A stretch of 64,000 bases of DNA, taken from a virus. The stretch covers positions 32,001 to 96,000 of IMG/VR virus record IMGVR_UViG_3300033143_005193; one strand, 5' to 3'. Shown piece after piece: positions 24,323 to 43,394 of the stretch (its first letter is position 1; each line of letters starts with the position of its first letter). The position numbers were made by a program, and so were the translations under genes. Below the pieces are notes generated by a model. It ran no database searches. It saw nothing but the letters and a program-made list of their open reading frames with translations, and had not been told where the DNA came from.

Positions 24323-24790
24323 ATGAGTGAAATAAGATTTTTTAAAGGTGATAATAATTGGTTATCTAATTTTTATCCATGTGAATTTGTCGATAAGTTT
24401 GGTAATAAATGGAAATCAGTAGAACATTATTATCAGGCAAATAAATGCGCAGATAAAAAAGATTTTGAAATGATTATGAATGCTAAAACAGCTAAAGAAG
24501 CAAAACGTTTAGGTAAAAAGGTTAAATTAAACGAAGATTGGAATTCAATAAAGTTGACAATTATGTTCGAATGTGTTAATATGAAATTTAATCAAAATCT
24601 TTTTTTGAAAAAAATGTTACTATCTACTAATTGTGTAAAATTAATCGAAGGTAATTATTGGCATGATAATTACTGGGGAAATTGTTATTGTTCCAAATGC
24701 TATGAAATTGATGGTAAAAATTATCTCGGAAAAATCTTAATGATGGTAAGAAAAAATATAGGAAAACAATATAATGATAGGTGCTTTTAA
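24323..24790 (+). CDS. NADAR (YbiA-like) family protein
   Basis: LSNFY..SVEHYYQA.K..AKRLG..W..IM..KF.QN..L.EGN.W.D.YWG..G.N.LG.ILM..R. Confidence 0.9.
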   Translation: MSEIRFFKGDNNWLSNFYPCEFVDKFGNKWKSVEHYYQANKCADKKDFEMIMNAKTAKEAKRLGKKVKLNEDWNSIKLTIMFECVNMKFNQNLFLKKMLLSTNCVKLIEGNYWHDNYWGNCYCSKCYEIDGKNYLGKILMMVRKNIGKQYNDRCF

Positions 24791-25610
24791 TATAGAAAAC
24801 AAAATGTTTTCAAAATTATCAGAACAAATATCATTGATTGATATAACTGATAATATTAACAAAAAGGTTGATGGTATAATATTAAAATGGATACCATTAT
24901 CTCAAAATGAATTATCTATAAAACAAATTCAGTTAATAGAAAAATATGTTAAAAAAATGCCAATTATAGTTATAGATAAATCAATGACAATTAATAGTAA
25001 AGAATATAATTGGCTCAAAAAATTTAAAGTTAAATTATATGAACCAGCTGTAAAAAATAGAGAATGTTTTAATTTTTTACCTGACTTTATTGATTTTTCT
25101 GAAATATCATTTAATAATGAAAGTAAAAAATATGATATAGCATATGAAAATGATGTTATATTGGATAATTTTGAGAAATACTATTGCTTGTTAAGTGATA
25201 AATATTCAATAAAAATTCCATGTAAAATATATAATATATCAAAGGAAAAAAAAGAAGTTTATAAAAAACTAAATATAGATTTTGAGATACCTTTTGATTG
25301 GAAAGATGTATCAACAACTGTAGTTATTGGTACAAAAAAAGATTATAAAATAGGTAACCTAAACGTTAATTTATTTAGTAAAATTAAATATGGTTGTTTA
25401 CCTTTAATACCAGAAGAACATAGATTTTTTGGTTCTTTGATGGAAACTTTAATAAAAAACCACCGTGATGTTTATTATTATTTAGGATATGATAAAAAAA
25501 TAAGATCAATATTATTGAATGATGTTTTAAAAAGATTAAAACATCATTATCCAGAATTTACAATAGAATATCAAATAGATGAATTAACAAATTTTTTTAA
25601 AAAATCTTAA
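24774..25610 (+). CDS. hypothetical protein, possible divergent GT-B glycosyltransferase
   Basis: C-terminal TVVIG.K.DY..G......IKYGCLPLIPEE weakly recalls the GT-B C-domain. Confidence 0.4.
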   Translation: MIGAFNIENKMFSKLSEQISLIDITDNINKKVDGIILKWIPLSQNELSIKQIQLIEKYVKKMPIIVIDKSMTINSKEYNWLKKFKVKLYEPAVKNRECFNFLPDFIDFSEISFNNESKKYDIAYENDVILDNFEKYYCLLSDKYSIKIPCKIYNISKEKKEVYKKLNIDFEIPFDWKDVSTTVVIGTKKDYKIGNLNVNLFSKIKYGCLPLIPEEHRFFGSLMETLIKNHRDVYYYLGYDKKIRSILLNDVLKRLKHHYPEFTIEYQIDELTNFFKKS

Positions 25611-25635
25611 AATATTGTGGAAAGGAATAAAAAAA

Positions 25636-25947
25636 ATGGGAAAATGTGATATAACAATTAATAAGGGACTTACAATTAACGATGGTAATTATGAATCATT
25701 AAGACCAGATGTAAGTGTAACATTTAAAGATGTTGATGTTGAAACATTGAATTCATTCTATGAAAAAGCAGATGATTTGGTTGGTGATTTGTTGGTATTG
25801 AATACCGCTTCCTTGAAAAATATTAAAAATGTTATAAAATATGAAAATCTTGAAAATGTTGTGAATGATATTTTAAAAAATGTTATAAAACATGAAAATC
25901 TTGAAAATGTTGTTGATGATGTTTTAAAAAATTTTGAAAAGTTATAA
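25636..25947 (+). CDS. hypothetical protein with an internal 17-aa duplication
   Basis: TINDGNYESLRPDV; KNVIK(Y/H)ENLENVV.D.L twice. Confidence 0.65.
   Translation: MGKCDITINKGLTINDGNYESLRPDVSVTFKDVDVETLNSFYEKADDLVGDLLVLNTASLKNIKNVIKYENLENVVNDILKNVIKHENLENVVDDVLKNFEKL
25825..25926 (+). repeat. 2 x 51-nt tandem duplication
   Basis: aaaaatgttataaaa(t/c)atgaaaatcttgaaaatgttgt.. occurs twice. Confidence 0.8.
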
Positions 25948-25971
25948 AATTAATATTGTAAAAAATATAGT

Positions 25972-26634
25972 ATGAATAAAATAAAAATCATTAAATGTGA
26001 TAAAAACCCAAAAGTTCTTATAGTCACTCCTTTATTACCAAAAGATAAAATAAGCAAAGAAACAAGAAAAAGTATAAAAAAGACAAAAACATCTATATTT
26101 TGGATATCATCCTCTGGTGATAATAATATACCAACAAATGCCAGAATTGGCATAGATTGGTATAAAGAAAAATATGGTAAGTTACCACCATATTATATAA
26201 TGATTGATAATGATATAATTGCCAATAAAGGAATGATTGATAAACTGGTTAGAACTTTAGATGAATGTAAAGATGAAAATGTAGCATATGCTTATGCTTC
26301 TTTTGAATTTAAAGGATATGTTAATATCAAATTTATTGCTAAAAAATTTGATGTAAAAAGACTATTGAATAATAATTATATATCATCCAATAGTCTTATA
26401 AAAACATCTATAATTGAAAAAATAGATTTTGTTTATGATAATAAATATAAAAGGTTACTTGATTGGGCTTATTGGTTAAAACTTCTTAAAAATGGATATA
26501 TAGGAATATCCTGTCCTGAAGCTCATTTTATAGCCAAATCAAGCGCTAATGATGTTTCAGCTGGATCTTCAAAAGATTTTAATTTAAAGAGAAATAGAGT
26601 AGTAAAAGATTTTATTTTACCTATGTCAAATTAG
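25972..26634 (+). CDS. GT-A (GT2-like) glycosyltransferase
   Basis: IMIDND (DxD), NNYISSNSLI, LLDWAYWL. Confidence 0.75.
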   Translation: MNKIKIIKCDKNPKVLIVTPLLPKDKISKETRKSIKKTKTSIFWISSSGDNNIPTNARIGIDWYKEKYGKLPPYYIMIDNDIIANKGMIDKLVRTLDECKDENVAYAYASFEFKGYVNIKFIAKKFDVKRLLNNNYISSNSLIKTSIIEKIDFVYDNKYKRLLDWAYWLKLLKNGYIGISCPEAHFIAKSSANDVSAGSSKDFNLKRNRVVKDFILPMSN

Positions 26635-26780: not shown

Positions 26781-27305
26781 TTATATTTTTATAGTTTTAT
26801 ATTGGTTATAATACAAATACAAAGTAATCATATCAACACATTCTTTAACATTAAAAATCTCTGTATCACATATTATATCAAATTCTTTTGGGTCATCAAA
26901 AGGATCTTGAATTCCGGTCATATTAGTGATTTCTCCATTCAAAGCCTTTTTATATAGACCCTTAACATCTCTTTTTATACAAGTTTCTAAGGAAGATTTT
27001 ACCCATACACCAACATAATTTTCTATACTTTTTTTATTTTCAACCCTCATTTCTTCATACGGTGTTATAACCGAAACTATTACATTTATACCATTTCTAT
27101 TTAATAAGTTACATACCCATCTTATTCTTTTGATATTATTAATTCTATCCTGTCTATTAAAACCTAAATTTGATAAATTTTCTCTTATTTCATCACCATC
27201 CAATAATTCTACTGGTTTTTTTACGCGATCAATTAATTCTTTTGATATTGTTGTTTTTCCAGAACATGGTAAACCAAATAACCATATTGTTTTACCTGTT
27301 TTCAT
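26781..27305 (-). CDS. cysC: adenylyl-sulfate (APS) kinase
   Basis: IWLFGLPCSGKTT, LDGDEIR..LGF...DR..N, RDVKGLYKKA..GEI..TGI.DP. Confidence 0.92.
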   Translation of the reverse strand: MKTGKTIWLFGLPCSGKTTISKELIDRVKKPVELLDGDEIRENLSNLGFNRQDRINNIKRIRWVCNLLNRNGINVIVSVITPYEEMRVENKKSIENYVGVWVKSSLETCIKRDVKGLYKKALNGEITNMTGIQDPFDDPKEFDIICDTEIFNVKECVDMITLYLYYNQYKTIKI

Positions 27306-28230
27306 TAAACCATTTTGCTGTTTCATTTAAACCTTTCTCCAAATCAGTGAATTCGAATCCTTTAAAAGTGTTCATGAATTTTTTGTTATTAATAAACACA
27401 TTTTTAACTTCACCTTTTCTCATTGGTTTGTAAACCAATTTTATTGTATTCTTATTATATTTATCCATTATACTTGATAAAATATTTAAAACATTATTTA
27501 TTTCATAATATTTACCAGAAGCTAATTGATATATTTCACCTTTTTTTGTTTCACTGTTAGAGAATAAATATAATGCTTTTACTAAATCTTTTACGTATAT
27601 AAAATCTCTTGTTTGTTTACCATCACCATACACACAAAATTCTTTATTTTGTAATAATCTATCCATAATATATTTTGGTATTAAATTAAGTTTTTTATGA
27701 AGAGAATAGGGACCATAAACATTTGAAAATCTTAATATTGTTGTGTTCAAACCAAAAGATTTAGCAAAAGCCAAACAATATGCTTCTCCGGCTAATTTAC
27801 TGGCTGCATAAGGTGATTCTGGTTTTGCAACCATTTCTTCATGTAATAATTCTGGTTTTTCACCTAAAACAGCACCTGATGAAGCAAAAATGAATTTTTT
27901 TACATTACTCATTAATGATGCGTTTAAATAATTAAATGTACCATCTATATTATATTTCTTATCAAGTTTTGGGTTTTTCAAAGAAGGAATAACACCTGAA
28001 TTTGCAGCAAGATGTATAACAACATCAACATTTTTACATAACTTCATTGCAAGAATATCATTAGATATATCATCATTTATAAAATTAATTTTTTCGCTTT
28101 TTATATAATCATCTGTTTTAAAAAGTAAATTATCGATTACAGTTATTTTACTGGCTTTATCTTTTTTTAATATATAATTAATTAAATTGGAACCAATAAA
28201 ACCAGCACCACCAGTTATTAAATAATGCAT
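27292..28230 (-). CDS. NAD-dependent nucleotide-sugar epimerase/dehydratase
   Basis: TGGAGFIG, YAASK, RFSNVYGP, GDG.QTRDF. Confidence 0.9.
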   Translation of the reverse strand: MHYLITGGAGFIGSNLINYILKKDKASKITVIDNLLFKTDDYIKSEKINFINDDISNDILAMKLCKNVDVVIHLAANSGVIPSLKNPKLDKKYNIDGTFNYLNASLMSNVKKFIFASSGAVLGEKPELLHEEMVAKPESPYAASKLAGEAYCLAFAKSFGLNTTILRFSNVYGPYSLHKKLNLIPKYIMDRLLQNKEFCVYGDGKQTRDFIYVKDLVKALYLFSNSETKKGEIYQLASGKYYEINNVLNILSSIMDKYNKNTIKLVYKPMRKGEVKNVFINNKKFMNTFKGFEFTDLEKGLNETAKWFNENR

Positions 28231-28231
28231 T

Positions 28232-29104
28232 TTAACGCTTCCTTTTCATATTGTAAATTAAATTTATAGCCGGTTTCACATCATCTATACCAAAACCATT
28301 ACCATTTAAAATGTCTTTATATACTGAAATATGAAGATCTTCAAAAACATCATCAAATCTTATTTTTTCATTATCTATTTTTAATTCTCTATATTTTTTA
28401 CCTTCAGGGGCATATTTTTTATTTGTTGATAAAAACCATTCTATCCAAGCGTTTTCCATTTTAATAAAACCTGAAGCTAAATCTTTTTCATATTTTTCTA
28501 GGGAAAACTTTTTAATATCTGTATCAAATAACCATAATAATAAATCAAAAAAATGAATACCAATATTTATCATTATACCACCAGATTTTTCTTCTATTCC
28601 TTTCCAAGAATAATCATACCATAAACCTCTTGGTGTTATATAAGTTAATTTTACATCATAATGTTTGTCTTTTTTTATTCTTTTCTTTAGATTTATTAAA
28701 GAAGGATGAAGTCTAAGTTGAAGAACATTATAAATTTTTTTACCTGTTTCCTTTTCTACTATTTTTAATTGATCAAGATTCCAAGGATTTACTGATAATG
28801 GTTTTTCACAAATAACATCAGCATTGGATCTTAAACCCAATCTACAATGAGAATCATGAAGATAATTTGGGGTACAAACTACTAAGTAATCTATTCCTTC
28901 ATCTTTTTTTCTTAAAAGTTCCAAATGTCTTTCGAATCTTTCAGTTTCGGTAAAAAAACTAGCTTCTGGAAAATAACTATCTATTACACCAACAGAATCA
29001 GATATATCCATAGCAGCGACAAGTTTATTACCAGTTTCTTTTATAGCTTTCATGTGTCGTGGTGCAACATATCCAGCTGCACCTATTAATGCAAATTTTT
29101 TCAT
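28232..29104 (-). CDS. WbpB/WlbA-like UDP-GlcNAcA 3-dehydrogenase (Gfo/Idh/MocA)
   Basis: FALIGAAGYVAPRHMKAIK, PNYLHDSH, ICEKP, LQLRLHP, NIGIHFFD. Confidence 0.85.
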   Translation of the reverse strand: MKKFALIGAAGYVAPRHMKAIKETGNKLVAAMDISDSVGVIDSYFPEASFFTETERFERHLELLRKKDEGIDYLVVCTPNYLHDSHCRLGLRSNADVICEKPLSVNPWNLDQLKIVEKETGKKIYNVLQLRLHPSLINLKKRIKKDKHYDVKLTYITPRGLWYDYSWKGIEEKSGGIMINIGIHFFDLLLWLFDTDIKKFSLEKYEKDLASGFIKMENAWIEWFLSTNKKYAPEGKKYRELKIDNEKIRFDDVFEDLHISVYKDILNGNGFGIDDVKPAINLIYNMKRKR

Positions 29105-29526
29105 TTCATTGGCCTCGCGGGATTTCCAATAACTTTTTCATTTTCTTTTATATCTTTTGTTACAACGGAACCAGCTGCAATAAAACAATTTTTTCCTAGT
29201 TTTATACCTGGCAAAATTGTTACACTACCACCAATAGTTACATTATCCTCAACAATAATTTTCATCCAATATTTTCCTTTAGATGGTGGATATTTATCAT
29301 TAAGAAATGTCGTGTTTGGTCCAATAAAAACATTGTTTCCTATTTCTACACCAGATGGTATAAAAACAAATGATTGGATTTTACAATTATCACCTATTAT
29401 AACATCTTTACATATTTCGACAAAATTACTTATTTTTACATTGTTTCCTATTTTACAATTATATAAGTTTATAAGGTTTTCATCATATATTATTAAATTT
29501 TCACCTATTATACAATCTTTTATCAT
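29101..29526 (-). CDS. hexapeptide-repeat sugar N-acetyltransferase (WbpD/FdtC-like)
   Basis: Left-handed beta-helix repeats, FIGP...F.NDKYP, GSVVTKD..GNPAR. Confidence 0.85.
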   Translation of the reverse strand: MIKDCIIGENLIIYDENLINLYNCKIGNNVKISNFVEICKDVIIGDNCKIQSFVFIPSGVEIGNNVFIGPNTTFLNDKYPPSKGKYWMKIIVEDNVTIGGSVTILPGIKLGKNCFIAAGSVVTKDIKENEKVIGNPARPMK

Positions 29527-30410
29527 AGAAAACTCTCTATATGTTTATATAATTGTTTTATTCTTATGTTATCAGTATGTTTTTCTTCTATTTCATTTCT
29601 CGCATTTTTTGACATTTCAATAGCTAATTCTCTATTAAATAATACTTTTCTTGTGTTTTTGACTATATCTGTCATATCTTCATTGTATGTTATATAACAA
29701 TCTGTTTTAAAAAGTGTTTTTTCGTTTTCATTGAGTGAATTTATTAAAGGAATTGAACCACTTGCCATGATTTCAAATGTTTTAGCATGAATAGAATTTT
29801 TTTCAGCAGATGATAACATACAAACATATTTTCTTAATATTTCTGGATATTCACTTAAAACTCTACCATGATCTTTTAATAAATTACTTTTATACAATAC
29901 TTCTATAGCTTTTTTTCTTATTTTATAAGTATTGGTGCAAGTACCAGCAAAACCAACTTTTTTTATTTTATTATCAAAATTTTCTATTGGATAAAATTCA
30001 CTAGTATCAGCTGACCATGGCAACCATATTGTAGGAATACCTAATTTTATTCTATATTTTTCAGGAATATATCCTCTATAAAAAATAACATCAAAATCAT
30101 TATTTTCATAAAAATCAAATCTATTTTTTTCTATTATTTTCCAAAAATCAACAGCAATAATTATTTTCAAACAAGGTAAATTCTTAAAAAAACCATTAAG
30201 AAGATCATGTTGAGAATGGCACATAATTACGTCTGGTTTGTATTTTTCATATAAATCTTTTGGTTGTACCAGAAGCTTATTATTTTTCTTATCAAAAGCT
30301 TCTATTATATTAAATTTATTACATAAAGGCCCTATTTTCCTAATAAAATCAATATTAATTCTACTGTTATAGAGATTTTTATTTTTTTTAGTTATTAAAA
30401 TAATTTTCAC
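29523..30410 (-). CDS. GT-B glycosyltransferase (CgeB-like)
   Basis: WLPWSAD...F.P, VGFAG....Y..R, KTFEIMASG. Confidence 0.7.
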   Translation of the reverse strand: MKIILITKKNKNLYNSRINIDFIRKIGPLCNKFNIIEAFDKKNNKLLVQPKDLYEKYKPDVIMCHSQHDLLNGFFKNLPCLKIIIAVDFWKIIEKNRFDFYENNDFDVIFYRGYIPEKYRIKLGIPTIWLPWSADTSEFYPIENFDNKIKKVGFAGTCTNTYKIRKKAIEVLYKSNLLKDHGRVLSEYPEILRKYVCMLSSAEKNSIHAKTFEIMASGSIPLINSLNENEKTLFKTDCYITYNEDMTDIVKNTRKVLFNRELAIEMSKNARNEIEEKHTDNIRIKQLYKHIESFL

Positions 30411-31023
30411 GTTTTATCACAGCTGGACACCCAGCAACCATTACATTATCAGGAACATCTTTTGTAACAACAGAACCAGCAGCAATGATACTGTTTTTTC
30501 CTATTTTTATATTTGGAATAATTACACTTCCTGTAAAAATATATGAATATCTACCAACAGTTACACCACCTGCCATTTTAACACCTGGTGCTATATTAAC
30601 AAAATCATCTATAATACAATCATGTTCTATACTAACACCAGAATGTATCATACAAAAACAACCAATATCAGAATAAGGGCCAATGTTAGCAAATGGATTT
30701 ATCAAAACACCTTGTCTAATAAAAGAAGATTTTGATATACTTGCTCTTATAGAAATAAATTTTGGATATATTATGCTTTTTTCTTTTTTAAAAAGATCTA
30801 TATATATATATTCCTTCTTTATATTATTACCATTTGATATAAAAACTTTACAATTTTCAGTTGGTTGAAATTCTTTCAAATCATTGATTTTTATAAATCC
30901 AATAGATTTTCCTATTTTTTTCTTATTATCACTGTAAATATTAATATTTTTATAACTATTAGAATTAGTCATATCTAAAACATATTTAGCTTGAGCACCA
31001 GCACCAATTATATTAAGACTCAT
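30388..31023 (-). CDS. NeuD/PglD-type sugar acetyltransferase
   Basis: IIGAGAQAK Rossmann domain + IEHDC hexapeptide domain. Confidence 0.85.
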   Translation of the reverse strand: MSLNIIGAGAQAKYVLDMTNSNSYKNINIYSDNKKKIGKSIGFIKINDLKEFQPTENCKVFISNGNNIKKEYIYIDLFKKEKSIIYPKFISIRASISKSSFIRQGVLINPFANIGPYSDIGCFCMIHSGVSIEHDCIIDDFVNIAPGVKMAGGVTVGRYSYIFTGSVIIPNIKIGKNSIIAAGSVVTKDVPDNVMVAGCPAVIKRENYFNN

Positions 31024-31033
31024 TCAATCCCTC

Positions 31034-32122
31034 CTAGAAAGAATTTACTACATCAATAATTCTATTAAGATCTTTTGTTGATAGATTTGGATGATTTGGT
31101 AGTCCAACAACTCTTTTACTGAAATGTTCAGCTCTCGGATGTAAAATACTATCATATTTTTTCTTAAATATAGGTTGTTTATATAATGGTTCATTATATC
31201 TATGCCTGAATCCAATACCATTTTCCTTCAAGTGTTTCAGAAAATCATCTCTTTCATCATATATTGTAATAACAGGACACCAAAAGAAAACACATTCCTT
31301 GTTAGTTTCTATTATGTCCTTATAAAGAGGCATTACCTTTGTAGATTTTATGTTATTGTAAATATATAAGGAATTTTCAAATCTTTTTTCATTAAAAGAA
31401 TCAAGTTTTTTCAACTGTTCTAATCCAATAACACCAGATACTTCATTCATTCTATAATTATATCCTAAATAAGTATGAGTGTGTCTATCAGTCATACCAT
31501 GAGATCTTATTTGTTTCAATCTTTCATACATTTCTTTACTGTTTGTAGTAATCATACCACCCTCTATAGTGGTCATATTTTTAGTAGCGAAAAATGAAAA
31601 ACAACCAGCATTACCAAAAGAACCTACTGTTTTTCCATCAATTTTGGCCCCATGAGCTTGAGCACAATCTTCTATAACAACAAGACCATATTTTTTAGCA
31701 ATATTCATTATTTTATCCATATCACATGGCATACCAAAATAATGAACAGGCATAATAATCTTTGTATTTTCAGTTATATGCTGTTCAATATCATCAGCGT
31801 TTATATTACATTCATCATTAACATCAACAAAAATTGGATCAGCATTTCTCATCAAAATAGGTGAAATTGTTGCAAAAAATGTCATGGACGGAACAATAAC
31901 TTCATTACCCCATTCAATATTGTAATAAATAAGAGCCAAATGAATAGCAGCTGTTCCAGAATTACATGCAACAGCATATTTTGTTCCAACATAATCGGCA
32001 AATTTCTTTTCAAATTGATCAACATATTTACCTGATGTATAATTTCCAGAAATTAATACTTCCCTAACTTTAGCGAGTTCTTCTTCATGAAGAATAGGCA
32101 TAGATACTTTAATATTTTCCAT
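31034..32122 (-). CDS. DegT/DnrJ/EryC1/StrS PLP sugar aminotransferase
   Basis: NSGTAA, EDCAQAHG, SFFATKN.TT.EGG, GYNYRM; GGAGG SD before ATG 32122. Confidence 0.93.
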   Translation of the reverse strand: MENIKVSMPILHEEELAKVREVLISGNYTSGKYVDQFEKKFADYVGTKYAVACNSGTAAIHLALIYYNIEWGNEVIVPSMTFFATISPILMRNADPIFVDVNDECNINADDIEQHITENTKIIMPVHYFGMPCDMDKIMNIAKKYGLVVIEDCAQAHGAKIDGKTVGSFGNAGCFSFFATKNMTTIEGGMITTNSKEMYERLKQIRSHGMTDRHTHTYLGYNYRMNEVSGVIGLEQLKKLDSFNEKRFENSLYIYNNIKSTKVMPLYKDIIETNKECVFFWCPVITIYDERDDFLKHLKENGIGFRHRYNEPLYKQPIFKKKYDSILHPRAEHFSKRVVGLPNHPNLSTKDLNRIIDVVNSF

Positions 32123-33071: not shown

Positions 33072-33391
33072 TTATTATTACTCCTTTGTCGTCTTCTAGC
33101 TTTATCCCTTGCTTTATCTAAATTATGTTCGTAATTCATTTCTTTCAAAAAAGCTTCTTTGTCTCCGCCTTTATATTCGAACAATTTTCTTGCAATTTTT
33201 TTACCCATAATATAGGCTTCTTGAAGAAGATCTATTATCTTTTCTCTTTTTTCTTCATCCGGTAATTCTATAACTTCATCATATATTTCTCTATGAACTT
33301 CGCAAATTGATCTAAATTTAGATGAAACAGGATCGCTTATTTTATTTTTTTCAAAATCTACTTCCTTTTTAATATTATTCTTTTTTGTCAT
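33068..33391 (-). CDS. hypothetical protein
   Basis: Helical protein (RSICEVHREIYD); GAGG SD. Confidence 0.65.
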   Translation of the reverse strand: MTKKNNIKKEVDFEKNKISDPVSSKFRSICEVHREIYDEVIELPDEEKREKIIDLLQEAYIMGKKIARKLFEYKGGDKEAFLKEMNYEHNLDKARDKARRRQRSNNK

Positions 33392-35269: not shown

Positions 35270-35292
35270 GATTATTTTTGCCCATATTAAAT

Positions 35293-36201
35293 TTATCCGT
35301 TGACTTCTTTTAATCTCCTTTTACTAATTTTTATTGTAAATTCATCTTTTTTAAATATTCTGCTTTGTTCTCTATTAAATCTACTACATATATATCCATC
35401 ATTCCAATAATTTATCATTTTACCAATATCAACACTTACTTTACCATGTTCTTTTATTATATCACTATATGATCTACCAAGCATTCCACCACCAACAAAG
35501 AAAATATCATAATCATTAATCTTCTTTTTTAATTCTTCTTTTATCTTTTCATGAAAATTTATATGCCATTTTTCTTTCGGTACATCATTTACATATCCCT
35601 TTTTACCAGAAATATTTCTAACTTTATTTGCTCTTGGAATTGAAAAAACACCATAATCTATACCATATTTTTTAAATTGATCAAAAGAATCATTTAAAGA
35701 TGTAACAAAACAAACCTTTTTATTATTTTTTTTAAGATATTTAAACAATTTCATATCATTGAAAAGAAAGAACCCAACATCAGTTTCACAATAATTAGTG
35801 TTCACTATACCAAGTTCATTATAATAATATTTCCATTTTTCTAGCAAACTTTTATTTTTACCGCCTTTTCTTTCCTTATATAAATCAAAAGATGATATGT
35901 AATTTGCCCTATTTGAAACATCTCTATACATATCCCAAACATAAGGAAATTTGTCAAAAGTTACACCTTGTTGGTATCCTTTCCAAACACAATCAAGTTT
36001 TCCATCATATTCTTCAAAAAAATCAACATTTTGTTTTTTAAGTTCTATAAAACATTTTATAAATTTTAGATCACCATCACCAAATCTTATCAGAGAAAAT
36101 GGCTTTGATTTTTCTACATGATTTATTATATCTTGTTTTATCCATTCTGAAGTATGAATATTAGTATTTGGTATATATTTTGTAATTTTAGATTTCTTCA
36201 T
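35293..36201 (-). CDS. GT-D fold (DUF1792-like) glycosyltransferase
   Basis: PFSLIRFGDGD and ..G.G.LG......GKVSVDIG motifs. Confidence 0.65.
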   Translation of the reverse strand: MKKSKITKYIPNTNIHTSEWIKQDIINHVEKSKPFSLIRFGDGDLKFIKCFIELKKQNVDFFEEYDGKLDCVWKGYQQGVTFDKFPYVWDMYRDVSNRANYISSFDLYKERKGGKNKSLLEKWKYYYNELGIVNTNYCETDVGFFLFNDMKLFKYLKKNNKKVCFVTSLNDSFDQFKKYGIDYGVFSIPRANKVRNISGKKGYVNDVPKEKWHINFHEKIKEELKKKINDYDIFFVGGGMLGRSYSDIIKEHGKVSVDIGKMINYWNDGYICSRFNREQSRIFKKDEFTIKISKRRLKEVNG

Positions 36202-36934
36202 CAAATCTATATCCTTTTAATATGTCATATTTGTTAATTATTTTTTTATATACTTTATTTTTTTGATCATCTGTCCATTTTAACCTAAATCTACTAAAAT
36301 GTGGTTTATTTTTTATTACATTTGAACATGATTCTATATAATCATCGAAAACATCAACACCCAAAAACTCACACATTTTTATTATATTTCTTTTTTTATT
36401 GTATATTAAATCTTCATGATATATTTCTAATATATTATTCTGTTCATTTTCTTCCTCATTTTTTATTTTTTGAACAACGTCCATTATTGAACAGTACACT
36501 TCTATAAGATTATCTATGCTTTTACCTTTTCTTATTGATTCTGTTGTTATTTGATCAAATGGATTTCGAACAGAATGAATATATTTTATTGGAAGATTTA
36601 TATTTTTTTGAAAGATTTTTAATTTGTTGAAATTTCTACTTAAATTTAAAGATGTATTATTTCCGTGTTTATCACCTATAACTAATAAATCACCATCTTT
36701 CCATGTTTTTTCAATTTTATATTTATATTTTCCTCTTACTAACTTGTTTTTTTCTTTTTCACATTTTTTTAAAATATTGTTTATAATCGTTTCTTTATTT
36801 TTATTATAACATCCATTTTTTTTAAAAATACCCAATTCATTTGAAATACGAATATTTGGATGGGCATTTAATATAACTGATATTAAACTATGTCCGCTTC
36901 TTCCAGGGCCTATAAACAAACAAAAATAATTCAT
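36188..36934 (-). CDS. sulfotransferase
   Basis: FIGPGRSGHSL..LNAHP 5'-PSB loop, GDK, VRNPFD 3'-PB motif, YHEDL..CEFLGV. Confidence 0.82.
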   Translation of the reverse strand: MNYFCLFIGPGRSGHSLISVILNAHPNIRISNELGIFKKNGCYNKNKETIINNILKKCEKEKNKLVRGKYKYKIEKTWKDGDLLVIGDKHGNNTSLNLSRNFNKLKIFQKNINLPIKYIHSVRNPFDQITTESIRKGKSIDNLIEVYCSIMDVVQKIKNEEENEQNNILEIYHEDLIYNKKRNIIKMCEFLGVDVFDDYIESCSNVIKNKPHFSRFRLKWTDDQKNKVYKKIINKYDILKGYRFDEEI

Positions 36935-37731
36935 ATTACACCATTCTTTTTTAAATAATCATAAGATTTTTTTAAATTTATTGATTTCAATCCTTTATTT
37001 GCATTTAACCATTCTCTGTTATTACTTCTCATCTGACCCCATTTAAAATTCGGATATTTTTTATTTATATCAACATATGCTTGATAACAAGCTTTTTGAC
37101 CATGAGCTTTGCCTCTTTTTTGTAGAGGAATTTTATCTATATAATATATCCATCTATCCATAAAATCTTTTACTTTATCATTTACAGTAAAACCCATTAC
37201 ACACATTAAAACAGCTCTGTTTTCCCTATATACAAATCCCTTTCTATTTATTTGTTTATCTATTCTAAATATGGTAGAAAAATCATTTTCTTTAGTTATT
37301 TTTAAAATTCGTTCAAAAGAACCAGTAACACAAGTATCTATATCTGCATGGAATAAATTATCACCTTCATCCATTTCTTTTATTAAACTATATATTGATT
37401 TTATTCTATCATCATCAGCTATATAATTCTTCCATATTTTTATTCCTGTGTTAGTCTTTTTGTTCTCTGTTATGTTTTTAAACATCATTAATTTTTCTTT
37501 ACTTATACCCATTTTTCTTGATAAATCATTATAATCTATTTTACTATTTCTAATTTCTATATTTTTTCTTAATGATGTTAATTCTTTTATTTGATCACTT
37601 TTCAGATCTTTTGTAAAGATTACCATTTCATCATCTTCACCATTAAAGTGTGTATATGATTTTATAAAAATTTTACCCCATTCAAAATAACCATCTGTTA
37701 AATAACTGTTTATAATCACACCATACCCCAC
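36931..37731 (-). CDS. putative GT-A glycosyltransferase
   Basis: HADIDT (DxD), F..RW..GQ; island context. Confidence 0.5.
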   Translation of the reverse strand: MGYGVIINSYLTDGYFEWGKIFIKSYTHFNGEDDEMVIFTKDLKSDQIKELTSLRKNIEIRNSKIDYNDLSRKMGISKEKLMMFKNITENKKTNTGIKIWKNYIADDDRIKSIYSLIKEMDEGDNLFHADIDTCVTGSFERILKITKENDFSTIFRIDKQINRKGFVYRENRAVLMCVMGFTVNDKVKDFMDRWIYYIDKIPLQKRGKAHGQKACYQAYVDINKKYPNFKWGQMRSNNREWLNANKGLKSINLKKSYDYLKKNGVI

Positions 37732-38486
37732 TCATCAAGATATTTTCCAAGGTCTACTTTTTTTAACAAAGATATCATTTTTCTTTTTTCTCTATCGTTA
37801 AAATATGATAATACATCTTCTTTATTTCTTTTTGTTATATTTGAATACATGTCAAAATATTCTACACCAATAAAATTACATAACTTTTCACACGTTTCTT
37901 TATTTAAATATGTTATTTGATTTGATTTTATATTGAAAGCACCGACTTTTTTAATCTCACCAATTTCTCCTTCTTTTCTTCCTATCATATCCTCATAATA
38001 TATTTTTATCTGGTTTTCATGTTTTTCCCATTTCTTTTTATATATTCTTGATTTTTCCATAGAATGTAGTATTTCGTTTACTAATTTTTTTACATCAATA
38101 TTTGTTATAGGATCTATTTGTCCTTTATTATTATTTCTTGATAATCTAGAAACAGCTTTTTTGAAATGATTTTTTCTGAATAGATGTATTATCTGTAGAT
38201 TATTTTTCCTAATATAAGGTTCTAATTTCCAATAATCACACTGATCATATATTAGTTTCAAATAAACATTTTCATCTTGTTCACCTAAATAATTAAGAAA
38301 TTTTTTTTTATTATATGATTTATTATCTTTCATCCATCTATACATATATTGACCATTTCTTTTTTTAATTTTTCCCCTTATCATAAAAAGTTCATCATAA
38401 CAAGTAATTTCTGGATGTGAATCTAAACAATTTTGTAATAAAGTAGATCCTGTTCTTTTATCACATAAAATAAAACCTTTAAACAT
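37716..38486 (-). CDS. Stf0-like sulfotransferase
   Basis: RTGSTLL...LDSHP..ELF, IIHLFRKN...AVS, YYED, CNFIGV. Confidence 0.8.
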   Translation of the reverse strand: MFKGFILCDKRTGSTLLQNCLDSHPEITCYDELFMIRGKIKKRNGQYMYRWMKDNKSYNKKKFLNYLGEQDENVYLKLIYDQCDYWKLEPYIRKNNLQIIHLFRKNHFKKAVSRLSRNNNKGQIDPITNIDVKKLVNEILHSMEKSRIYKKKWEKHENQIKIYYEDMIGRKEGEIGEIKKVGAFNIKSNQITYLNKETCEKLCNFIGVEYFDMYSNITKRNKEDVLSYFNDREKRKMISLLKKVDLGKYLDEWGMV

Positions 38487-38500
38487 ATAAAAAATCTCCT

Positions 38501-39454
38501 TTAAATTTCGTCAATTAAAGCTTTAACAGAATTTTGTTTTTCCATGATAACATTTAGTGTATTAAACATTCTTACTTTACTTGAATGATATTTCTGTATA
38601 AAATTAAAAGCTTTTTCTCTTATTTTAGATGTATCCTTATTCTCCCAAATTTTCCATAATTCTTTCACAATCTCTGGATTATCATAACTATGAAATAATA
38701 CATGAATATCATCAGGCAAAATTTTTTCTTGCCACTTAAATTTTCTACTTATCATAAAGGCACCACAACCTAAATATTGAAATGGTCTTACGTCAATAAA
38801 ACCACCAATATCGTAACCAGTACATAATCCTAATATACATTTAGAAGAAATAGAAACTTCTGGTGTATATTTTCTTAGATCATTTTTAGATTTAGTTTTT
38901 ACAATGATTATTTTCATTATTTTACGTAATTCTTTTATAAATTCAGATCTATCTTTATGTGATGATTGTGATCCTGTAAATAATGGATGTTGAAAACTAA
39001 ATTTAGGATTTTTTTGTGGTATTTTATTTAATGTTAATGAAGAATATGGCCAAAAAAAGACTGGAATATTCCAATATGATTTAAATTTATCCAGATTTTC
39101 TAGTTGTGAAACGAAAGCAAAATCAAAAACTTCTCTTAAATCACCATCATATCTAGGTTCATCTCTTGCATCAGAAAGAGTATGAATCATTTTAATTCCT
39201 TTGGATTTAAAATCTCTAAATAATTGAAAAACATCTGGTAATTTTTTATGATGATGGAATGTTAAATGTGTGAATATAATATTAGGCTTAAAATCGTAAA
39301 CAATTTCTTTTATAGTATCTAAACTATTTTTTTTCCAATCAACACCAATAACATTATGTCCGTTTAAAGTAAAACCCTCATATGTTGTTTTAACAAACCA
39401 ACTATAAGCATTATTTATATTATTACCAGTATTACCTAATATTATAATTTTCAT
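38501..39454 (-). CDS. GT-B glycosyltransferase (CgeB-like)
   Basis: LFTGS...HKDR, DVRPFQYLGCGAFMI, H....R C-terminal helix. Confidence 0.65.
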   Translation of the reverse strand: MKIIILGNTGNNINNAYSWFVKTTYEGFTLNGHNVIGVDWKKNSLDTIKEIVYDFKPNIIFTHLTFHHHKKLPDVFQLFRDFKSKGIKMIHTLSDARDEPRYDGDLREVFDFAFVSQLENLDKFKSYWNIPVFFWPYSSLTLNKIPQKNPKFSFQHPLFTGSQSSHKDRSEFIKELRKIMKIIIVKTKSKNDLRKYTPEVSISSKCILGLCTGYDIGGFIDVRPFQYLGCGAFMISRKFKWQEKILPDDIHVLFHSYDNPEIVKELWKIWENKDTSKIREKAFNFIQKYHSSKVRMFNTLNVIMEKQNSVKALIDEI

Positions 39455-40730
39455 TTTTTTCTAAAATACTCCTAAACATTTTTCTATAATTTTCAGATTG
39501 AATTTTCCACGTCCATCCATCTTCTACTGTTTTTCTAGCATTTATACCCATTTCTATTAGCTTATCTCTATTGTTTTTAAACCAGTTTATTTTTTCAACA
39601 TAAGCATTAATATTTCTATCTACCAAAAAACCATTATATCCATCTTTTATAAATTCAGGCATATTACCTATTTTATTTGATATTATTGGTCTTCCACAAG
39701 CAGCAGCTTCCAATGCTGGATTAGGTGTTCCATCTTCATCACTTGAAACAATAAAAACATCCATATCTTGATACAAATCAGGCATTTTATCATGTGGTAA
39801 TCTGTTAGTATAATCATTCAAATGTAAACGACTATCAGCATCTGCTCTTTCTATTGCTGGTATAATAAAATCTTTTTGACCTTTTCTTGGTGATAATTTA
39901 CCAACATGACCAACAACTATTTTATTTCTTTCTCTTGGAATATATTTTTTTATATTGAAAAGTTCCTCATCAACACCATTTGGAACATAATATAAATTAT
40001 CAGAAAACCCCATATTTACCAGTTCATTATACAGTAAAACAGAATTAGCATGTATATGACCAGCTAATCTCATTCTTTTTCTTATCATTTCTGGGTTTCT
40101 GTGAGCAGTAACACCTGTTACTCTTTTCTTTTTTTCAACATTGTTTATTTTTGTTATATATGAATATCCAAAAGTAAAATAAATATCATAAAATCTATTA
40201 TTTATACCAGCAGTTTTTCCATCTTCAAGATAATTATAAATATCAAAATCAAATTCATCAGAAAGATATCTTATTAAATATCGTGATTTTATCCACCAAG
40301 CCCATCCTTCAACATCAGTAATAAGAAGAATTTTTGGTTTACCTGATTTTTCTTTAATAGATTTTGTTGGTATTCTATTTTTATATCTTTTTGTACTAAT
40401 GTTTTTTGTTATATTTTTCTTTTTTCTTTCTTTTTCTCTGTTTATGTATTCTCTTATTAAAATCTTTTTTCTGGATGTTTTATTATCTCTTACAATTACA
40501 CCAGCTGACATATCTTCCTCACTTATATTGATTAAAGAATTTAAATAATCAGTTATTTTTCTTAAATCTTTTATTTTTTGTTTTGCGAAAGAAATTCTTC
40601 TAAGATCTTTTTTGTTTTTTGATTCTTTCTTTTCTAAAGTTGATAAATATTCTTCTATTTTTTTTATTTCATCTTCTTTTTCTTTAATAATTTCTCTAAA
40701 TTTTTTTTCTGTATATTCAAGATTTTCCAT
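39432..40730 (-). CDS. GT4-family glycosyltransferase with a basic coiled-coil N-terminal extension
   Basis: VPNGVD, RKG, DGTPNPALEAAACGRPII, DGYNGFLV. Confidence 0.85.
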   Translation of the reverse strand: MENLEYTEKKFREIIKEKEDEIKKIEEYLSTLEKKESKNKKDLRRISFAKQKIKDLRKITDYLNSLINISEEDMSAGVIVRDNKTSRKKILIREYINREKERKKKNITKNISTKRYKNRIPTKSIKEKSGKPKILLITDVEGWAWWIKSRYLIRYLSDEFDFDIYNYLEDGKTAGINNRFYDIYFTFGYSYITKINNVEKKKRVTGVTAHRNPEMIRKRMRLAGHIHANSVLLYNELVNMGFSDNLYYVPNGVDEELFNIKKYIPRERNKIVVGHVGKLSPRKGQKDFIIPAIERADADSRLHLNDYTNRLPHDKMPDLYQDMDVFIVSSDEDGTPNPALEAAACGRPIISNKIGNMPEFIKDGYNGFLVDRNINAYVEKINWFKNNRDKLIEMGINARKTVEDGWTWKIQSENYRKMFRSILEKNENYNIR

Positions 40731-40751
40731 AAAACAATAATTTCCATAGGA

Positions 40752-43394
40752 TTATTTTTTCCATGTTATTATAGGAATCACAACATTATTTAATTTCTTT
40801 AAATCAATATTCTTTAGATTTTTTAATTTATCAATAACATAGCACCCTTCATCTTCTATTGTTCTTGTTGGCTTAAATCCAAGATTTTTTAGTTTATCAA
40901 CAACTGGATTGTAATAAAAATTATCGGTAGATTCGCTTCTTGGTGATTCTATATGAATTTTTTCGGCTTTTATACCAAATTTATTAGCTATATAAATTAC
41001 TTTATCAGCTAATTCATTCATAGATAATGGTTCATCTAATTGATTCCATGTTCTATATTCACCATTATTTGGATAATTTTCTATGGCCAGCATTAGACAT
41101 TGAACAGAGTCATTTAATGATAAAAATCCTCTACTATGCTCACCTTTTCCAAAAATAGTTAAAGGATGACCTATAACAGCTTGAACAATAAATCTATTGA
41201 AAACAGTACCAAAACATTCATCAGAATCAAATCTTGTATTCAATCCAGTTTCTTCTATTTCTGGTGTCCATGCACCATAAACTACACCCTGCATTATATC
41301 AGTAGCTCTTATATCATAAAATCTACAAGCACAATCAATATAATAAGTAGAAGCAACTTTACTGTTACCACACCATACAGATTTACCATTTCTTCTAACA
41401 TAAATTATATTATTCGGAACTTCTACACAATAAATTTTTCCATTATATTTAATTTTATTCCAAGAATTATCTTCTTTATTATTAATTTGTGTTGTTTTAT
41501 TATCAGAAATATAAACACAATATTCATTTTCTTGTTCATCAATTTTATGAAGATAAGCGGAATATCCAAGTTTTAAACAAATTTCATGAAAATCATTAGC
41601 AAGTTGAATAGATTTTGTATAATAAGCTCCTCTTAATTTTTTTGATTTATCATCTATCCAACCATCACCTTTCATCATTGTATTAAATAAGATTTTTAAT
41701 AATGGTTTTGAAAGATTTTTTATCCATTTAGGAATATATTTTTCATCACTTAATTTGAATTTTTTTAAATATTCTGATAATTGTTTGTATCTTATAGAGA
41801 ATATATTTACTCCATTAAAATCTTTATTTATTTGAATTTTTCTATTAAAAATTGATAATGAATTTTTAATTTCTTCGAAATATTGTTCTTTTTTTTGTGA
41901 TATATTTATTGAATTTTTATATAAATTTCCTTCGGTTATATACCATCCAAAAAATAATAACCAATCTTCCATTGGAATATATTTTTCTTTTTCTAATTTA
42001 AATACATCTTTTGTTAAAGTTACCATACATTCTGGTAAAACAAAATATTCAAAATCATCCCCATTCCAATTATCAACATTTGTTTTAAGACAGATATCTT
42101 TTCCATATACATCCTTCGCTTCTGTAAGTCGCCAATTTTTTAAATCACTTCTATGAGAAGAATGTTCTAATAATTTATGATTATCTGTTACAAGTAAATC
42201 AATATTTTTATTTTTTAATGAAATAAGATCACCATCAAAATCATATTCAAAATGATTAATTGGTAATTGATACTCTAATTCATTTTTTTCTTTATTTAAA
42301 GTAGCTACCTTTTCTTTTTTGTTCAAATTTTTAAACAACTTCCATCCATTTTCCGTAAGAATCTCTGTATCATCTGAATAACATGCATGGTAATACGAAC
42401 CAGGTTTTCTTGGATAAATTGCGTTTTTTATTAATTTACCATCATATTCAAAATCAAAAACACCTTCTGGTATTCTTATTCCAACACTAGGATCATATTC
42501 ACCCATACTATTACCAGACCAATAATTTTTTCCATTTCTTCTAACCATTATTATACCAGTAGGAACAGTACAACAATACACATAATCATTATATTCTATT
42601 TTTGATATATGATCTTTTTTTACAAAAGCATCATTGTTTTTTGTCATATCATCAGTATTTTTTGGAATATAAAATGATTGTTTATGAATCATTTTATCAG
42701 CTCTTTCTATTTTTATATCACCGTCTTCATCTTTATATACAACTCTATGATTAGGTGTCAAAAGACAATCAACTTTTTTATTTTTTATTGATATCATTTC
42801 ACCATTATATTTGTATTTTTGTATTTCAGATGGATTATGATATTCTATTTTCATTTTATTTTTATCTAAACACATTACTTTATCATTTTTAGATAATTCT
42901 TCAAAACGTTTCCATCCATCTTCTGTTAAAATTTCTGTTTCTTTATCGTAACATCCAATTGTTACTAAACTAGTATCTGGTGAATATTCTTTTATGGCAT
43001 GAAGAATGTTAAGTGTACCTAGAATGTTATTATAAGTAGTTTCATATGCTAATTCTCTATTTTTATGTGAAAATGGAGCAGCTGGTTGTTGGGCTAGATT
43101 AACAACAACATCTGGTTTATATTCTTCAAAAATTCTTTGTAATTGATAATAATCATCAATACCATCAATTCCCATTTTATAGAATATGAAATCACCATAT
43201 TCTTTCATTATTTTTAATCGTTTGTTTGGTTCTTCTATTGGTAAAGCAGAAAAAGATTCCATGTAATGTTCTACATAGAATCTTCTTCTAAAATCATCTA
43301 TACAAATAACTTTATATCCTTTTTTTAATAATCTTAAAGTTAATGCATGTCCTATATAACCATCACTACCACAAACCAAAACAGTTTTACTCAT
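40752..43394 (-). CDS. sqdB: UDP-sulfoquinovose synthase (SqdB/Agl3-like) with two inteins
   Basis: CGSDGYIG, DDF.RR, AQQPAAPFS, NN..GTLN.L, G|SMGEY, YHA|SK, TD.MQGVVYG, RFD.D..FGTV.NRF.VQA..GHPLT.FG.G; spliced length 392 aa. Confidence 0.85.
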   Translation of the reverse strand: MSKTVLVCGSDGYIGHALTLRLLKKGYKVICIDDFRRRFYVEHYMESFSALPIEEPNKRLKIMKEYGDFIFYKMGIDGIDDYYQLQRIFEEYKPDVVVNLAQQPAAPFSHKNRELAYETTYNNILGTLNILHAIKEYSPDTSLVTIGCYDKETEILTEDGWKRFEELSKNDKVMCLDKNKMKIEYHNPSEIQKYKYNGEMISIKNKKVDCLLTPNHRVVYKDEDGDIKIERADKMIHKQSFYIPKNTDDMTKNNDAFVKKDHISKIEYNDYVYCCTVPTGIIMVRRNGKNYWSGNSMGEYDPSVGIRIPEGVFDFEYDGKLIKNAIYPRKPGSYYHACYSDDTEILTENGWKLFKNLNKKEKVATLNKEKNELEYQLPINHFEYDFDGDLISLKNKNIDLLVTDNHKLLEHSSHRSDLKNWRLTEAKDVYGKDICLKTNVDNWNGDDFEYFVLPECMVTLTKDVFKLEKEKYIPMEDWLLFFGWYITEGNLYKNSINISQKKEQYFEEIKNSLSIFNRKIQINKDFNGVNIFSIRYKQLSEYLKKFKLSDEKYIPKWIKNLSKPLLKILFNTMMKGDGWIDDKSKKLRGAYYTKSIQLANDFHEICLKLGYSAYLHKIDEQENEYCVYISDNKTTQINNKEDNSWNKIKYNGKIYCVEVPNNIIYVRRNGKSVWCGNSKVASTYYIDCACRFYDIRATDIMQGVVYGAWTPEIEETGLNTRFDSDECFGTVFNRFIVQAVIGHPLTIFGKGEHSRGFLSLNDSVQCLMLAIENYPNNGEYRTWNQLDEPLSMNELADKVIYIANKFGIKAEKIHIESPRSESTDNFYYNPVVDKLKNLGFKPTRTIEDEGCYVIDKLKNLKNIDLKKLNNVVIPIITWKK
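41364..42383 (-). mobile_element. intein with LAGLIDADG endonuclease (340 aa) in sqdB
   Basis: CYSDDTEILT..TDNH..GWYITEG..MMKGDG..RRNGKSVWCGN|S. Confidence 0.88.
42510..42953 (-). mobile_element. mini-intein (148 aa) in sqdB
   Basis: CYDKETEILT..TPNHRV..RRNGKNYWSGN|S; no endonuclease domain. Confidence 0.88.

Follow-up and report, generated by a model that had tools for sequence, protein, structure and literature searches.

What does a phage build with a compact set of genes for sulfated sugars, and on what does it place the product? The question is raised by an island of glycan-related enzymes in a 64,000-nt stretch of viral DNA (the window), which comprises bases 32001-96000 of a single 110,776-bp IMG/VR virus record (IMGVR_UViG_3300033143_005193; G000 in the comparisons below). 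The record has a GC content of 26.8%, lacks a terminal repeat, and is 46% complete according to CheckV, so the full genome is probably near 240 kb. Judged from its predicted enzymes, the island should yield an anionic, sulfated or sulfonated glycan, and we put the odds at about even (probability, ~0.5) that the chain is placed on the phage's own virion proteins.

The enzyme block spans 16.6 kb (26781-43394) and consists of eighteen tightly packed or overlapping genes, all on the minus strand:

26781-27326, minus strand: adenosine 5′-phosphosulfate (APS) kinase, which makes the sulfate donor 3′-phosphoadenosine 5′-phosphosulfate (PAPS) (PF01583, E = 2.4e-43; TIGR00455, 158.6 bits against a cutoff of 138.7).
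27292-28230, minus strand: short-chain dehydrogenase/reductase (SDR), a nucleotide-sugar 4,6-dehydratase or epimerase of the RmlB/GalE/TviC-like type (PF01370, E = 1.7e-52; top NCBIfam match, the dTDP-glucose 4,6-dehydratase model at 196.7 bits, under its cutoff).
28232-29104, minus strand: WbpB-type UDP-2-acetamido sugar 3-dehydrogenase of the GFO/IDH/MocA family (full-length matches to PDB 3o9z, E = 6.7e-86, and 3oa2, E = 1.2e-84).
29101-29526, minus strand: short hexapeptide (left-handed beta-helix [LbH]) N-acetyltransferase of the 3-amino-sugar type, WlbB/QdtC/WxcM-like (PF00132, E = 5e-27; closest PDB entries, 4mzu, 7s3u, 3fs8 [QdtC], and 3mqg [WlbB]).
29523-30410, minus strand: CgeB-like GT-B glycosyltransferase (Glyco_trans_1_2; PF13524, E = 1.4e-8, above cutoff).
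30388-31023, minus strand: hexapeptide amino-sugar N-acetyltransferase of the PglD/NeuD/VioB type with a PglD_N domain (TIGR03570, E = 4.9e-47, 160.1 bits against a cutoff of 160.8).
31034-32146, minus strand: DegT/PseC/WbpE-type sugar aminotransferase, the only one in the island (PF01041, E = 3e-115).
32109-33071, minus strand: SDR nucleotide-sugar enzyme, LegB/RmlB/GalE-like (PF01370, E = 2.9e-43).
33068-33403, minus strand: 111-aa protein with no match in any library; a methyltransferase takes its place in a related record (L004).
33375-34277, minus strand: SDR nucleotide-sugar enzyme, LegB/CapD-like (PF01370, E = 6.7e-42; PF02719, E = 1.1e-23).
34274-35269, minus strand: probable GT-B glycosyltransferase, a weak assignment (PF13692, E = 0.009; family profile against the GlgA C-terminal domain in PDB, E = 8e-4; conserved E..E motif).
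35293-36204, minus strand: GT-D-fold-like glycosyltransferase (PF22882, E = 1.6e-7, above cutoff).
36188-36934, minus strand: PAPS-dependent sulfotransferase 1 (PF13469, E = 2e-8, above cutoff).
36931-37731, minus strand: GT-A (GT8-like) retaining glycosyltransferase, 266 aa (AlphaFold model and Foldseek; no Pfam match).
37716-38486, minus strand: sulfotransferase 2 (PF13469, E = 1.7e-10 on the N-terminal PAPS loop KRTGST, above cutoff).
38501-39454, minus strand: glycosyltransferase (Glyco_trans_1_2), the core partner of GT4 (PF13524, E = 4.4e-7).
39432-40730, minus strand: GT4 glycosyltransferase, the most conserved core gene (PF00534, E = 5e-21).
40752-43394, minus strand: UDP-sulfoquinovose synthase of the SqdB/SQD1/Agl3 type with two inteins (NF041015, E = 4.4e-108, in two stretches).

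Pfam, NCBIfam, and PDB matches thus bear out the inventory of an earlier reading of this DNA (the original prediction), namely, an APS kinase, three SDRs, a dehydrogenase (WbpB), an aminotransferase, two acetyltransferases, two sulfotransferases, and SqdB. The anionic, sulfated product that it expected agrees with the identification of the APS kinase, the sulfotransferases, and SqdB. It had also counted seven to eight glycosyltransferase-like genes of three folds; GT-A, GT-B, and GT-D are all represented, and we find six candidates (four GT-B, one GT-D-like, and the GT8-like GT-A enzyme), one of them weak.

Several assignments go beyond family matches. The protein at 36931-37731 is, by its AlphaFold model (pLDDT, 94.9), a GT8-like GT-A glycosyltransferase: Foldseek paired the model with XXYLT1, WbbM, LARGE1, glycogenin, and LgtC at a probability of 1.00, its DxD motif (D130 and D132) is invariant in 50 sequences, and the ESM Atlas puts it in phage GT8/Nucleotid_trans clusters. 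Its family has 126 representatives among 1.84 billion proteins. No more than 5 relatives of the GT-D-like enzyme, all metagenomic, came out of a word-indexed search of 5.8 billion proteins, and the GT4 enzyme begins with a variable coiled coil of ~130 aa. The PAPS-binding motifs of sulfotransferase 1 (GPGRSGHS and RNPFD) are invariant between this protein and its L004 orthologue, and homologues of sulfotransferase 2 occur in 8 related loci.

The SqdB gene encodes a protein interrupted by two inteins. Because these split the match, its NF041015 score (361.7 bits) falls under the 575-bit cutoff; the match covers the full extein length. We placed the intein boundaries with the help of an inteinless orthologue (L010:8824-9993), to which the BLAST pieces were 58 to 81% identical; the L004 orthologue is likewise without inteins. 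Intein 1 (nt 42510-42953) is a 148-aa mini-intein located immediately before the catalytic Ser of GSMGEY, and intein 2 (nt 41364-42383; 340 aa) carries a LAGLIDADG endonuclease and sits inside the YxxxK motif. The two are related, and both start with Cys and end with GN, followed by Ser. SqdB keeps the Rossmann motif (GSDGYIG at the N terminus), the catalytic Ser, and YxxxK, and after conceptual intein removal it reads GSMGEY and YYHA-SK, like the L010 and L004 orthologues.

How would these enzymes be supplied? ATP sulfurylase and PAPS reductase were not found, so APS and sulfite must come from the host, which would also provide UDP-Glc and UDP-GlcNAc(A). Once both inteins are spliced out, SqdB would convert UDP-Glc and sulfite into UDP-sulfoquinovose, the APS kinase would raise PAPS, and the two sulfotransferases would add sulfate esters to the chain. 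The LbH acetyltransferase gene overlaps that of the WbpB orthologue, with the DegT aminotransferase gene 2 kb away, and this WbpB-pathway set could turn UDP-GlcNAc(A) into a 2,3-diacetamido-type sugar. No WbpA-type UDP-GlcNAc 6-dehydrogenase (UDPG_MGDP_dh domain) was seen among the window open reading frames (ORFs) scanned, and the uronic acid substrate for WbpB may come from the host; L010 has a UDPG_MGDP_dh gene just before SqdB. The three SDRs and the PglD-like acetyltransferase would give a further acetamido or deoxy sugar.

The island enzymes are soluble, with no export parts nearby, as the original prediction had held. A hydropathy scan of the 144 ORFs in the 110-kb record found none with at least 4 predicted transmembrane segments, and the six glycosyltransferase candidates have no such segments. 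We extended the search to seven related records (G000 to G006; ~690 kb in total), all of them fragments (15 to 77% complete). In six-frame hidden Markov model searches of all seven, the priming transferase PF02397 and the Wzx family PF01943 were absent, as were PF00953 (Glycos_transf_4), PF04932 (Wzy_C), and PF01061 (ABC2_membrane) from the two records tested, G000 and G001 (the L004 record); control genomes matched in both searches. These incomplete records also hold no protein of >140 aa with at least 4 transmembrane segments. Within 10 kb of GT4 in 40 loci, 2 of 810 proteins reached that number, one being only 139 aa long and the other lying in a giant-virus bin. Window scans recovered no Pfam family for the seroconversion parts GtrA, GtrB, type-specific Gtr, or acyltransferase-3 Oac, and the record has no polytopic membrane protein. 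The absence of Wzx, Wzy, and a priming transferase is therefore upheld, and the possibility that export genes lie just outside the window finds no support in the 110-kb record, at its 46% completeness.

The island is a phage possession. Its marker genes identify the record as a large, uncultured T4-related myovirus: it has a gp5-type hub with lysozyme, a gp6-type wedge, gp47/gp46, UvsX, a gp32-like single-stranded DNA-binding protein, a primase, and a T4-type RNase H. The split family-B polymerase is only ~32% identical to those of cyanophages and other T4-like phages, UvsX used as a query found no close viral relatives, and capsid, portal, terminase, and sheath genes were not found on the 110-kb fragment. 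An archaeal host, suggested by the SqdB/Agl3 and WbpB sugars, is ruled out by the gp5-type lysozyme hub, a sigma-70 region-4 protein, and an NAD-dependent ligase. A chimeric host contig, which the original prediction had named as a risk, is ruled out too: phage genes lie on both sides of the island, GC is even over the window (0.22 to 0.36), and the arrangement is kept in other viral contigs. As a separate observation, the coding-strand GC skew is unusually strong throughout the window (+0.2 to +0.4) and reverses exactly where the gene orientation switches, at ~26.7 kb.

In the T4-like lineage, the island always lies between a block of primase, p153, GT9-like, Zn-ribbon, p371, and Dam genes and the UvsX block. 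L004 (IMGVR_UViG_3300035698_009562) has the same island in collinear order, with protein identities of 32 to 67% and an additional methyltransferase and GSCFA gene. In the metagenome contig L006, the core is kept (SqdB, GT4, Glyco_trans_1_2, sulfotransferase, and GT8-like) and the tail differs: besides methyltransferases and a WbmS-like deacetylase, it adds three further sulfotransferases and another SqdB-like gene. The tail differs once more in L010, the closest relative by replication genes (ribonucleotide reductase, 87%; SqdB, 80%), where it includes an AsnB-type amidotransferase and a UDP-sugar 6-dehydrogenase. The conserved core thus comprises SqdB, GT4, the Glyco_trans_1_2 enzyme, and a sulfotransferase, joined in some relatives by the GT8-like gene, and together with the variable tail it resembles serotype loci. 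The collinearity in L004, the same core with other tails, and the fixed place suggest that the island is phage resident and under selection. Among the variable-tail genes, we observed the amidotransferase at L010:14837-16681, the 6-dehydrogenase at L010:7953-8801, the WbmS-like deacetylase at L006:11733-12428, and a FemAB-like transferase at L006:13447-14517; such genes suggest that in some variants the uronic acids are amidated or decorated with peptides.

Which substrate receives the chain? The distribution of GT4 offers one line of evidence. At an E value of ≤1e-5, we found 708 GT4 homologues among 5.8 billion proteins, all metagenomic and on contigs of up to 240 kb, and many were 55 to 65% identical over the C-terminal 300 aa. 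In contrast to this abundance in metagenomes, tblastn of 50,697 GenBank phage records returned no homologue of GT4, SqdB, sulfotransferase 1, or the GT8-like protein and an APS kinase homologue in only 6; megablast of the island against GenBank phages gave no match. A GT4 profile recovered 39 viral loci with GT4 proteins 40 to 60% identical and GC contents of 23 to 69%, and therefore phages of very different hosts keep this gene. SqdB was present in 14 of 40 related loci, with GT4 directly following it here and in several relatives, and a Glyco_trans_1_2 gene of the 38501-39454 type accompanied GT4 in 18 of the 40.

In an HK97-type lineage, GT4 sits among head genes. The order there is portal, F11 (a protein of 360 to 570 aa), major capsid protein (PF05065, E = 8e-45), and GT4. 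The GT4 gene comes immediately after the capsid gene in L028, L031, and L032, where its product is 616 to 631 aa long (in L031, a GT2-GT4 fusion by Pfam), and within 4.5 kb of it in L025 and L043. In the longer loci (L025, L032, and L043), Glyco_trans_1_2, GT2, and methyltransferase genes then follow. That a glycan module should sit in a head operon speaks for late expression and for a substrate in the virion.

A second line of evidence comes from candidate acceptors. In the serine-rich repeat adhesins of Gram-positive bacteria, soluble GT4, GT-D, and GT-A enzymes attach O-glycans in the cytoplasm, and long poly-Ser tracts are their classic targets (PMC6973325). Fibre-like proteins of relatives that bear the island contain tracts of 20 to 185 residues, which are poly-Ser and not Thr. 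In L013 (the G004 record, 66% complete), seven proteins have tracts of up to 185 residues, all in the baseplate/fibre region (53.4 to 83.4 kb), and two of them are homologues of the window genes 10232-13018 and 13023-13547. Six poly-Ser proteins in L011 (the G003 record) are likewise confined to the baseplate/fibre region (62.8 to 86.5 kb), and G001 has a [Ser6-X]n frame of >560 codons (33.5 to 35.4 kb) that runs off the contig end. No poly-Ser tracts were found in G002, G005, or G006. By analogy with the adhesins, the poly-Ser proteins are candidate glycan acceptors, which is suggestive only.

Virion proteins are favoured as the target because GT4 recurs across 23 to 69% GC, because it follows the capsid gene in another lineage, and because three relatives carry poly-Ser, fibre-like proteins. 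Under this reading, a strongly anionic oligosaccharide, branched or linear, would be assembled in the cytoplasm on the acceptor itself, without a lipid carrier or flippase, and the virion proteins would be modified before lysis. Soluble enzymes would act here as they do in Gram-positive serine-rich adhesin glycosylation and in mycobacteriophage capsid glycosylation. Priming and initiation of the chain would fall to the conserved core, and the variable remainder would diversify the chain between phage strains. A more far-reaching version, which we hold tentatively and at somewhat short of even odds, is that widespread uncultured phages cover the capsid or fibres of their own particles with a mucin-like glycan that is sulfated and contains sulfoquinovose. 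All the enzymes that make it would be the phage's own and would act in the cytoplasm, and in some members the glycan would lie on poly-Ser tracts hundreds of residues long.

Several observations weigh against a virion target. No ORF or frame of G000 has a Ser/Thr-rich tract, the fibre genes homologous to the relatives' poly-Ser proteins included, and poly-Ser could serve as linkers without glycosylation. The island of the T4-like lineage lies in the replication/recombination block and not with the late genes. Owing to its 46% completeness, the record lacks capsid, portal, and sheath genes. Promoter and terminator scans of this AT-rich DNA were uninformative, with matches not above chance (sigma-70-like sites, 148 observed against 171 expected; TATAAATA, 35 observed against 31 expected). 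The related loci were fetched with a GT4 query, so their GT4 is present by construction. Both SqdB inteins end in GN, not HN, and their efficient splicing is assumed. Non-priming glycosyltransferases of O-antigen and capsule synthesis are normally soluble or peripheral and act on host lipid-linked acceptors, so the solubility of the enzymes is a weak argument on its own. Finally, the WbpB, DegT, PglD-like, and GT4 enzymes are classic parts of O-antigen pathways.

These last points lead to the alternative that the island remodels the host envelope. A foreign sulfated unit would be assembled on a host lipid-linked primer such as undecaprenyl-pyrophosphate-linked GlcNAc (Und-PP-GlcNAc) and carried by the host's Wzx, ligase, or ATP-binding cassette (ABC) exporter into lipopolysaccharide (LPS), capsule, or the S-layer, thereby changing receptors, blocking superinfection, or keeping progeny from sticking to debris. 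It is the reading offered for the LPS-like genes of pelagimyophages and cyanomyophages (PMC7029224, PMC12801897), and it suits the WbpB, DegT, LbH, PglD-type, and GT4 enzymes, the lack of transmembrane segments (shared with non-priming O-antigen enzymes), and the serotype-like layout of core and tail; the wide occurrence of Und-PP-GlcNAc could also account for GT4 conservation across hosts. However, the seven records hold no priming transferase or flippase, and the two tested hold no polymerase/ligase or ABC-2 permease. Host Wzy and Wzx would need to handle foreign units of many kinds. The poly-Ser virion-type proteins of relatives and, in other phages, the placement of the GT4 module inside a head-gene operon, right after the capsid gene, fit this alternative poorly, and the investment would be large for a lytic phage. 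We regard an envelope target as unlikely, though it deserves serious attention. A sulfolipid or other small product seems quite improbable. SqdB and GT4 would then act like cyanobacterial SqdB-SqdX and make a sulfoquinovosyl lipid (for example, sparing phosphorus for phage DNA), or the set would make a soluble sulfated glycoconjugate. All the enzymes are soluble, and the position of GT4 directly after SqdB, here and in several relatives, resembles the sqdB-sqdX layout. Yet the core also includes a second glycosyltransferase and a sulfotransferase (and, in some relatives, the GT8-like gene), which have no role in sulfoquinovosyldiacylglycerol synthesis, GT4 occurs without SqdB next to capsid genes, and the match of its profile is confined to the donor domain generic to GT4 enzymes.

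A further alternative, DNA hypermodification, would have the glycosyltransferases put sugars, possibly sulfated, on a hydroxymethyl-pyrimidine as protection against restriction, like T4 glucosyl-hydroxymethylcytosine and the glycosyltransferase clusters of Pyle and colleagues. In favour of this reading, UvsX and the primase bracket the island within the replication block, with Dam as its neighbour, a GT9-like gene is fixed beside the primase, and a divergent gene resembling thymidylate synthase (TS) is found 12 kb away (55571-56374, minus strand). The T4 beta-glucosyltransferase gene likewise adjoins uvsX. Phage glycosyltransferases that are paired with ThyS homologues and with epimerases decorate 5-hydroxymethylcytosine with mono-, di-, or trisaccharides (bioRxiv 10.1101/2023.12.21.572611). 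The TS-like protein is very divergent and matches TS models only over its C-terminal third, with a resemblance to the archaeal TIGR03283 type. The catalytic Cys, RS.D, an Asn (PEN motif), and H.Y are all kept; the Asn, which occupies the base-specificity position, marks the protein as dUMP type and not as dCMP-hydroxymethylase type. The protein is predicted to be a plain TS or a dUMP hydroxymethylase and probably serves as the phage's ordinary TS, because it is the only TS-like gene found in the record; neither a second TS nor ThyX was found there. Window Pfam scans gave no match to the T4 alpha- or beta-glucosyltransferase families and no TET/JBP or C5-methyltransferase domain, and Dam is an N6-adenine methylase. 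Six glycosyltransferases and two sulfotransferases would produce a bulky polyanion that is hard to package, and the occurrence of GT4 beside capsid genes in other lineages also speaks against DNA as the acceptor, a reading that we find very improbable.

Three further genes at the edges of the island or beyond it require comment:

24774-25610, plus strand: p278 family protein beside the island, with no Pfam or PHROG match.
25972-26634, plus strand: p220 family protein, an island border marker, with no Pfam, PHROG, or PDB match.
46090-46926, minus strand: GT9-like (GT-B) protein in the primase block, outside the island proper (ESM Atlas only; no Pfam match).

The original prediction had drawn the island from 24774 to 43394. 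The enzyme block within those limits stands, and the plus-strand ORFs 24774-25610 and 25972-26634, which match no family, are tied to it solely by synteny in relatives. Homologues of p278 (31 to 35% identity) occur directly upstream of GT4 on the same strand in L011, L013, and L018. Its AlphaFold model (pLDDT, 52) is too poor to use, and an hhalign comparison of p278 with the GT4 family was negative. Homologues of p220 (37 to 50% identity) mark the island end in L004, L017, L023, L027, and L045, and the G004 homologue adjoins a 1529-aa poly-Ser protein. The ORF at 25615-25947 has no link to the island.

Two more distant genes had also been called glycosyltransferase-like. For the one at 46090-46926, the ESM Atlas placement in phage clusters named GT9/heptosyltransferase (TM score, 0.77 to 0.82) agrees with that call, and Pfam gives no match; the primase-p153-GT9-like order is kept in related loci (GT9-like in 10, p153 in 10, and primase in 9), and the protein could be a separate, possibly DNA- or replication-linked glycosyltransferase. 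We found no glycosyltransferase evidence for the gene at 62273. Its 739-aa ORF, which covers 62273-64000 and beyond (L008:274-2493, minus strand), consists of a LAGLIDADG intein inside an extein with no assigned function, and an inteinless orthologue of 366 aa is present in G004 (126053-127153). Inteins are also seen in the ribonucleotide reductase large subunit (48939-54314, minus strand), whose 1791 aa include three intein-splicing stretches and HNH and LAGLIDADG endonuclease domains. Elsewhere in the window, a TnpB/IS605-type transposase-like gene (18389-19462, plus strand; phrog_506, E = 2e-127) lies between gp47 and gp46. A gene resembling S-adenosylmethionine lyases (54345-55025, minus strand) and a Dam-type N6-adenine methyltransferase gene (43399-44211, minus strand) flank the region; both are likely anti-restriction functions.

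How far is such a system already known? Glycosylation by soluble enzymes has precedents in phages and giant viruses, as do large glycosyltransferase sets in T4-like marine phages. According to later accounts of the work of Freeman et al. (2023) (PMC12619734, PMC12801897), soluble glycosyltransferases of mycobacteriophages (Che8, Corndog, and Myrna type) modify capsid and tail proteins. The island resembles these systems in its phage-encoded soluble glycosyltransferases and its lack of membrane export parts. Mycobacteriophages, however, use few glycosyltransferases on acceptors shown by experiment, whereas the present system has a putative acceptor and ~20 genes, including those for donor synthesis, PAPS supply, sulfotransferases, and SqdB, and its lineage and host range differ, the phage being T4-like and ~240 kb in size. 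In T4-like marine phages (pelagimyophages [PMC7029224] and the cyanophages P-SSM2, S-SCSM1, and S-SCSM2R [PMC12801897]), variable regions carry many soluble glycosyltransferases and epimerases of untested function, for which the authors favour a change of the host O-chain. Neither sulfotransferases nor SqdB is reported in those sets, and the term sulfotransferase occurs in neither text (PMC7029224, PMC12801897); this island has both. The original prediction of an undescribed system is therefore fair for the sulfo-chemistry, while large soluble glycan sets as such have been published.

The fold types of the soluble enzymes (GT4, GT-D, and GT-A) recall serine-rich repeat protein (SRRP) glycosylation by GtfA/B, GtfC, and dGT1 with its GT-D domain, in which a variable glycan is built on Ser-rich tracts before export and the number of extending glycosyltransferases differs between strains (PMC6973325). 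Unlike SRRP systems, the island has no DUF1975/GtfB partner (DUF1975 had no match in island scans) and no accessory Sec system, and G000 has no Ser-rich tracts; GT4 matches GtfA only weakly (E = 6e-5). To our knowledge, SRRP glycans contain neither sulfate nor sulfoquinovose, and we use the likeness as a working analogy only. SqdB shares SDR motifs and a full-extein family match with plant SQD1, bacterial SqdB, and Agl3 of the Sulfolobus N-glycan pathway, but it differs from them in being phage encoded, in its two inteins, and in its linkage to glycosyltransferases and sulfotransferases instead of lipid synthesis or a dolichol pathway. Among viruses of eukaryotes, giant viruses (chlorovirus and Mimivirus/Megavirus) decorate their virions with their own dehydratase, aminotransferase, acetyltransferase, and soluble glycosyltransferases; we know of no sulfation of their glycans. 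Neither a phage sulfotransferase nor a phage sqdB was the subject of any paper in full-text searches of the literature. The novelty lies in the combination, within a single phage island, of PAPS supply, sulfotransferases, a UDP-sulfoquinovose synthase, and genes for diacetamido sugars.

The conserved GT4 core, with its hundreds of metagenomic homologues, offers a handle for finding such phages, and the compact, soluble, carrier-free enzyme set could serve glyco-engineering. Even with the host envelope or DNA as its target, the island would be the first sulfation pathway assigned to that role in a phage. Should the virion indeed carry a sulfated coat, bacterial viruses would gain their first sulfated glycoprotein system, and sulfoquinovose, used in sulfolipids and in archaeal N-glycans, would acquire a third use in biology. 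Such a coat would also constitute a viral sink for host sulfur, drawn as APS and sulfite, and the charge of the virion, its adsorption, its stickiness to particles or mucus, and its recognition by grazers or immune systems would depend on a chemistry that has so far gone unexamined.

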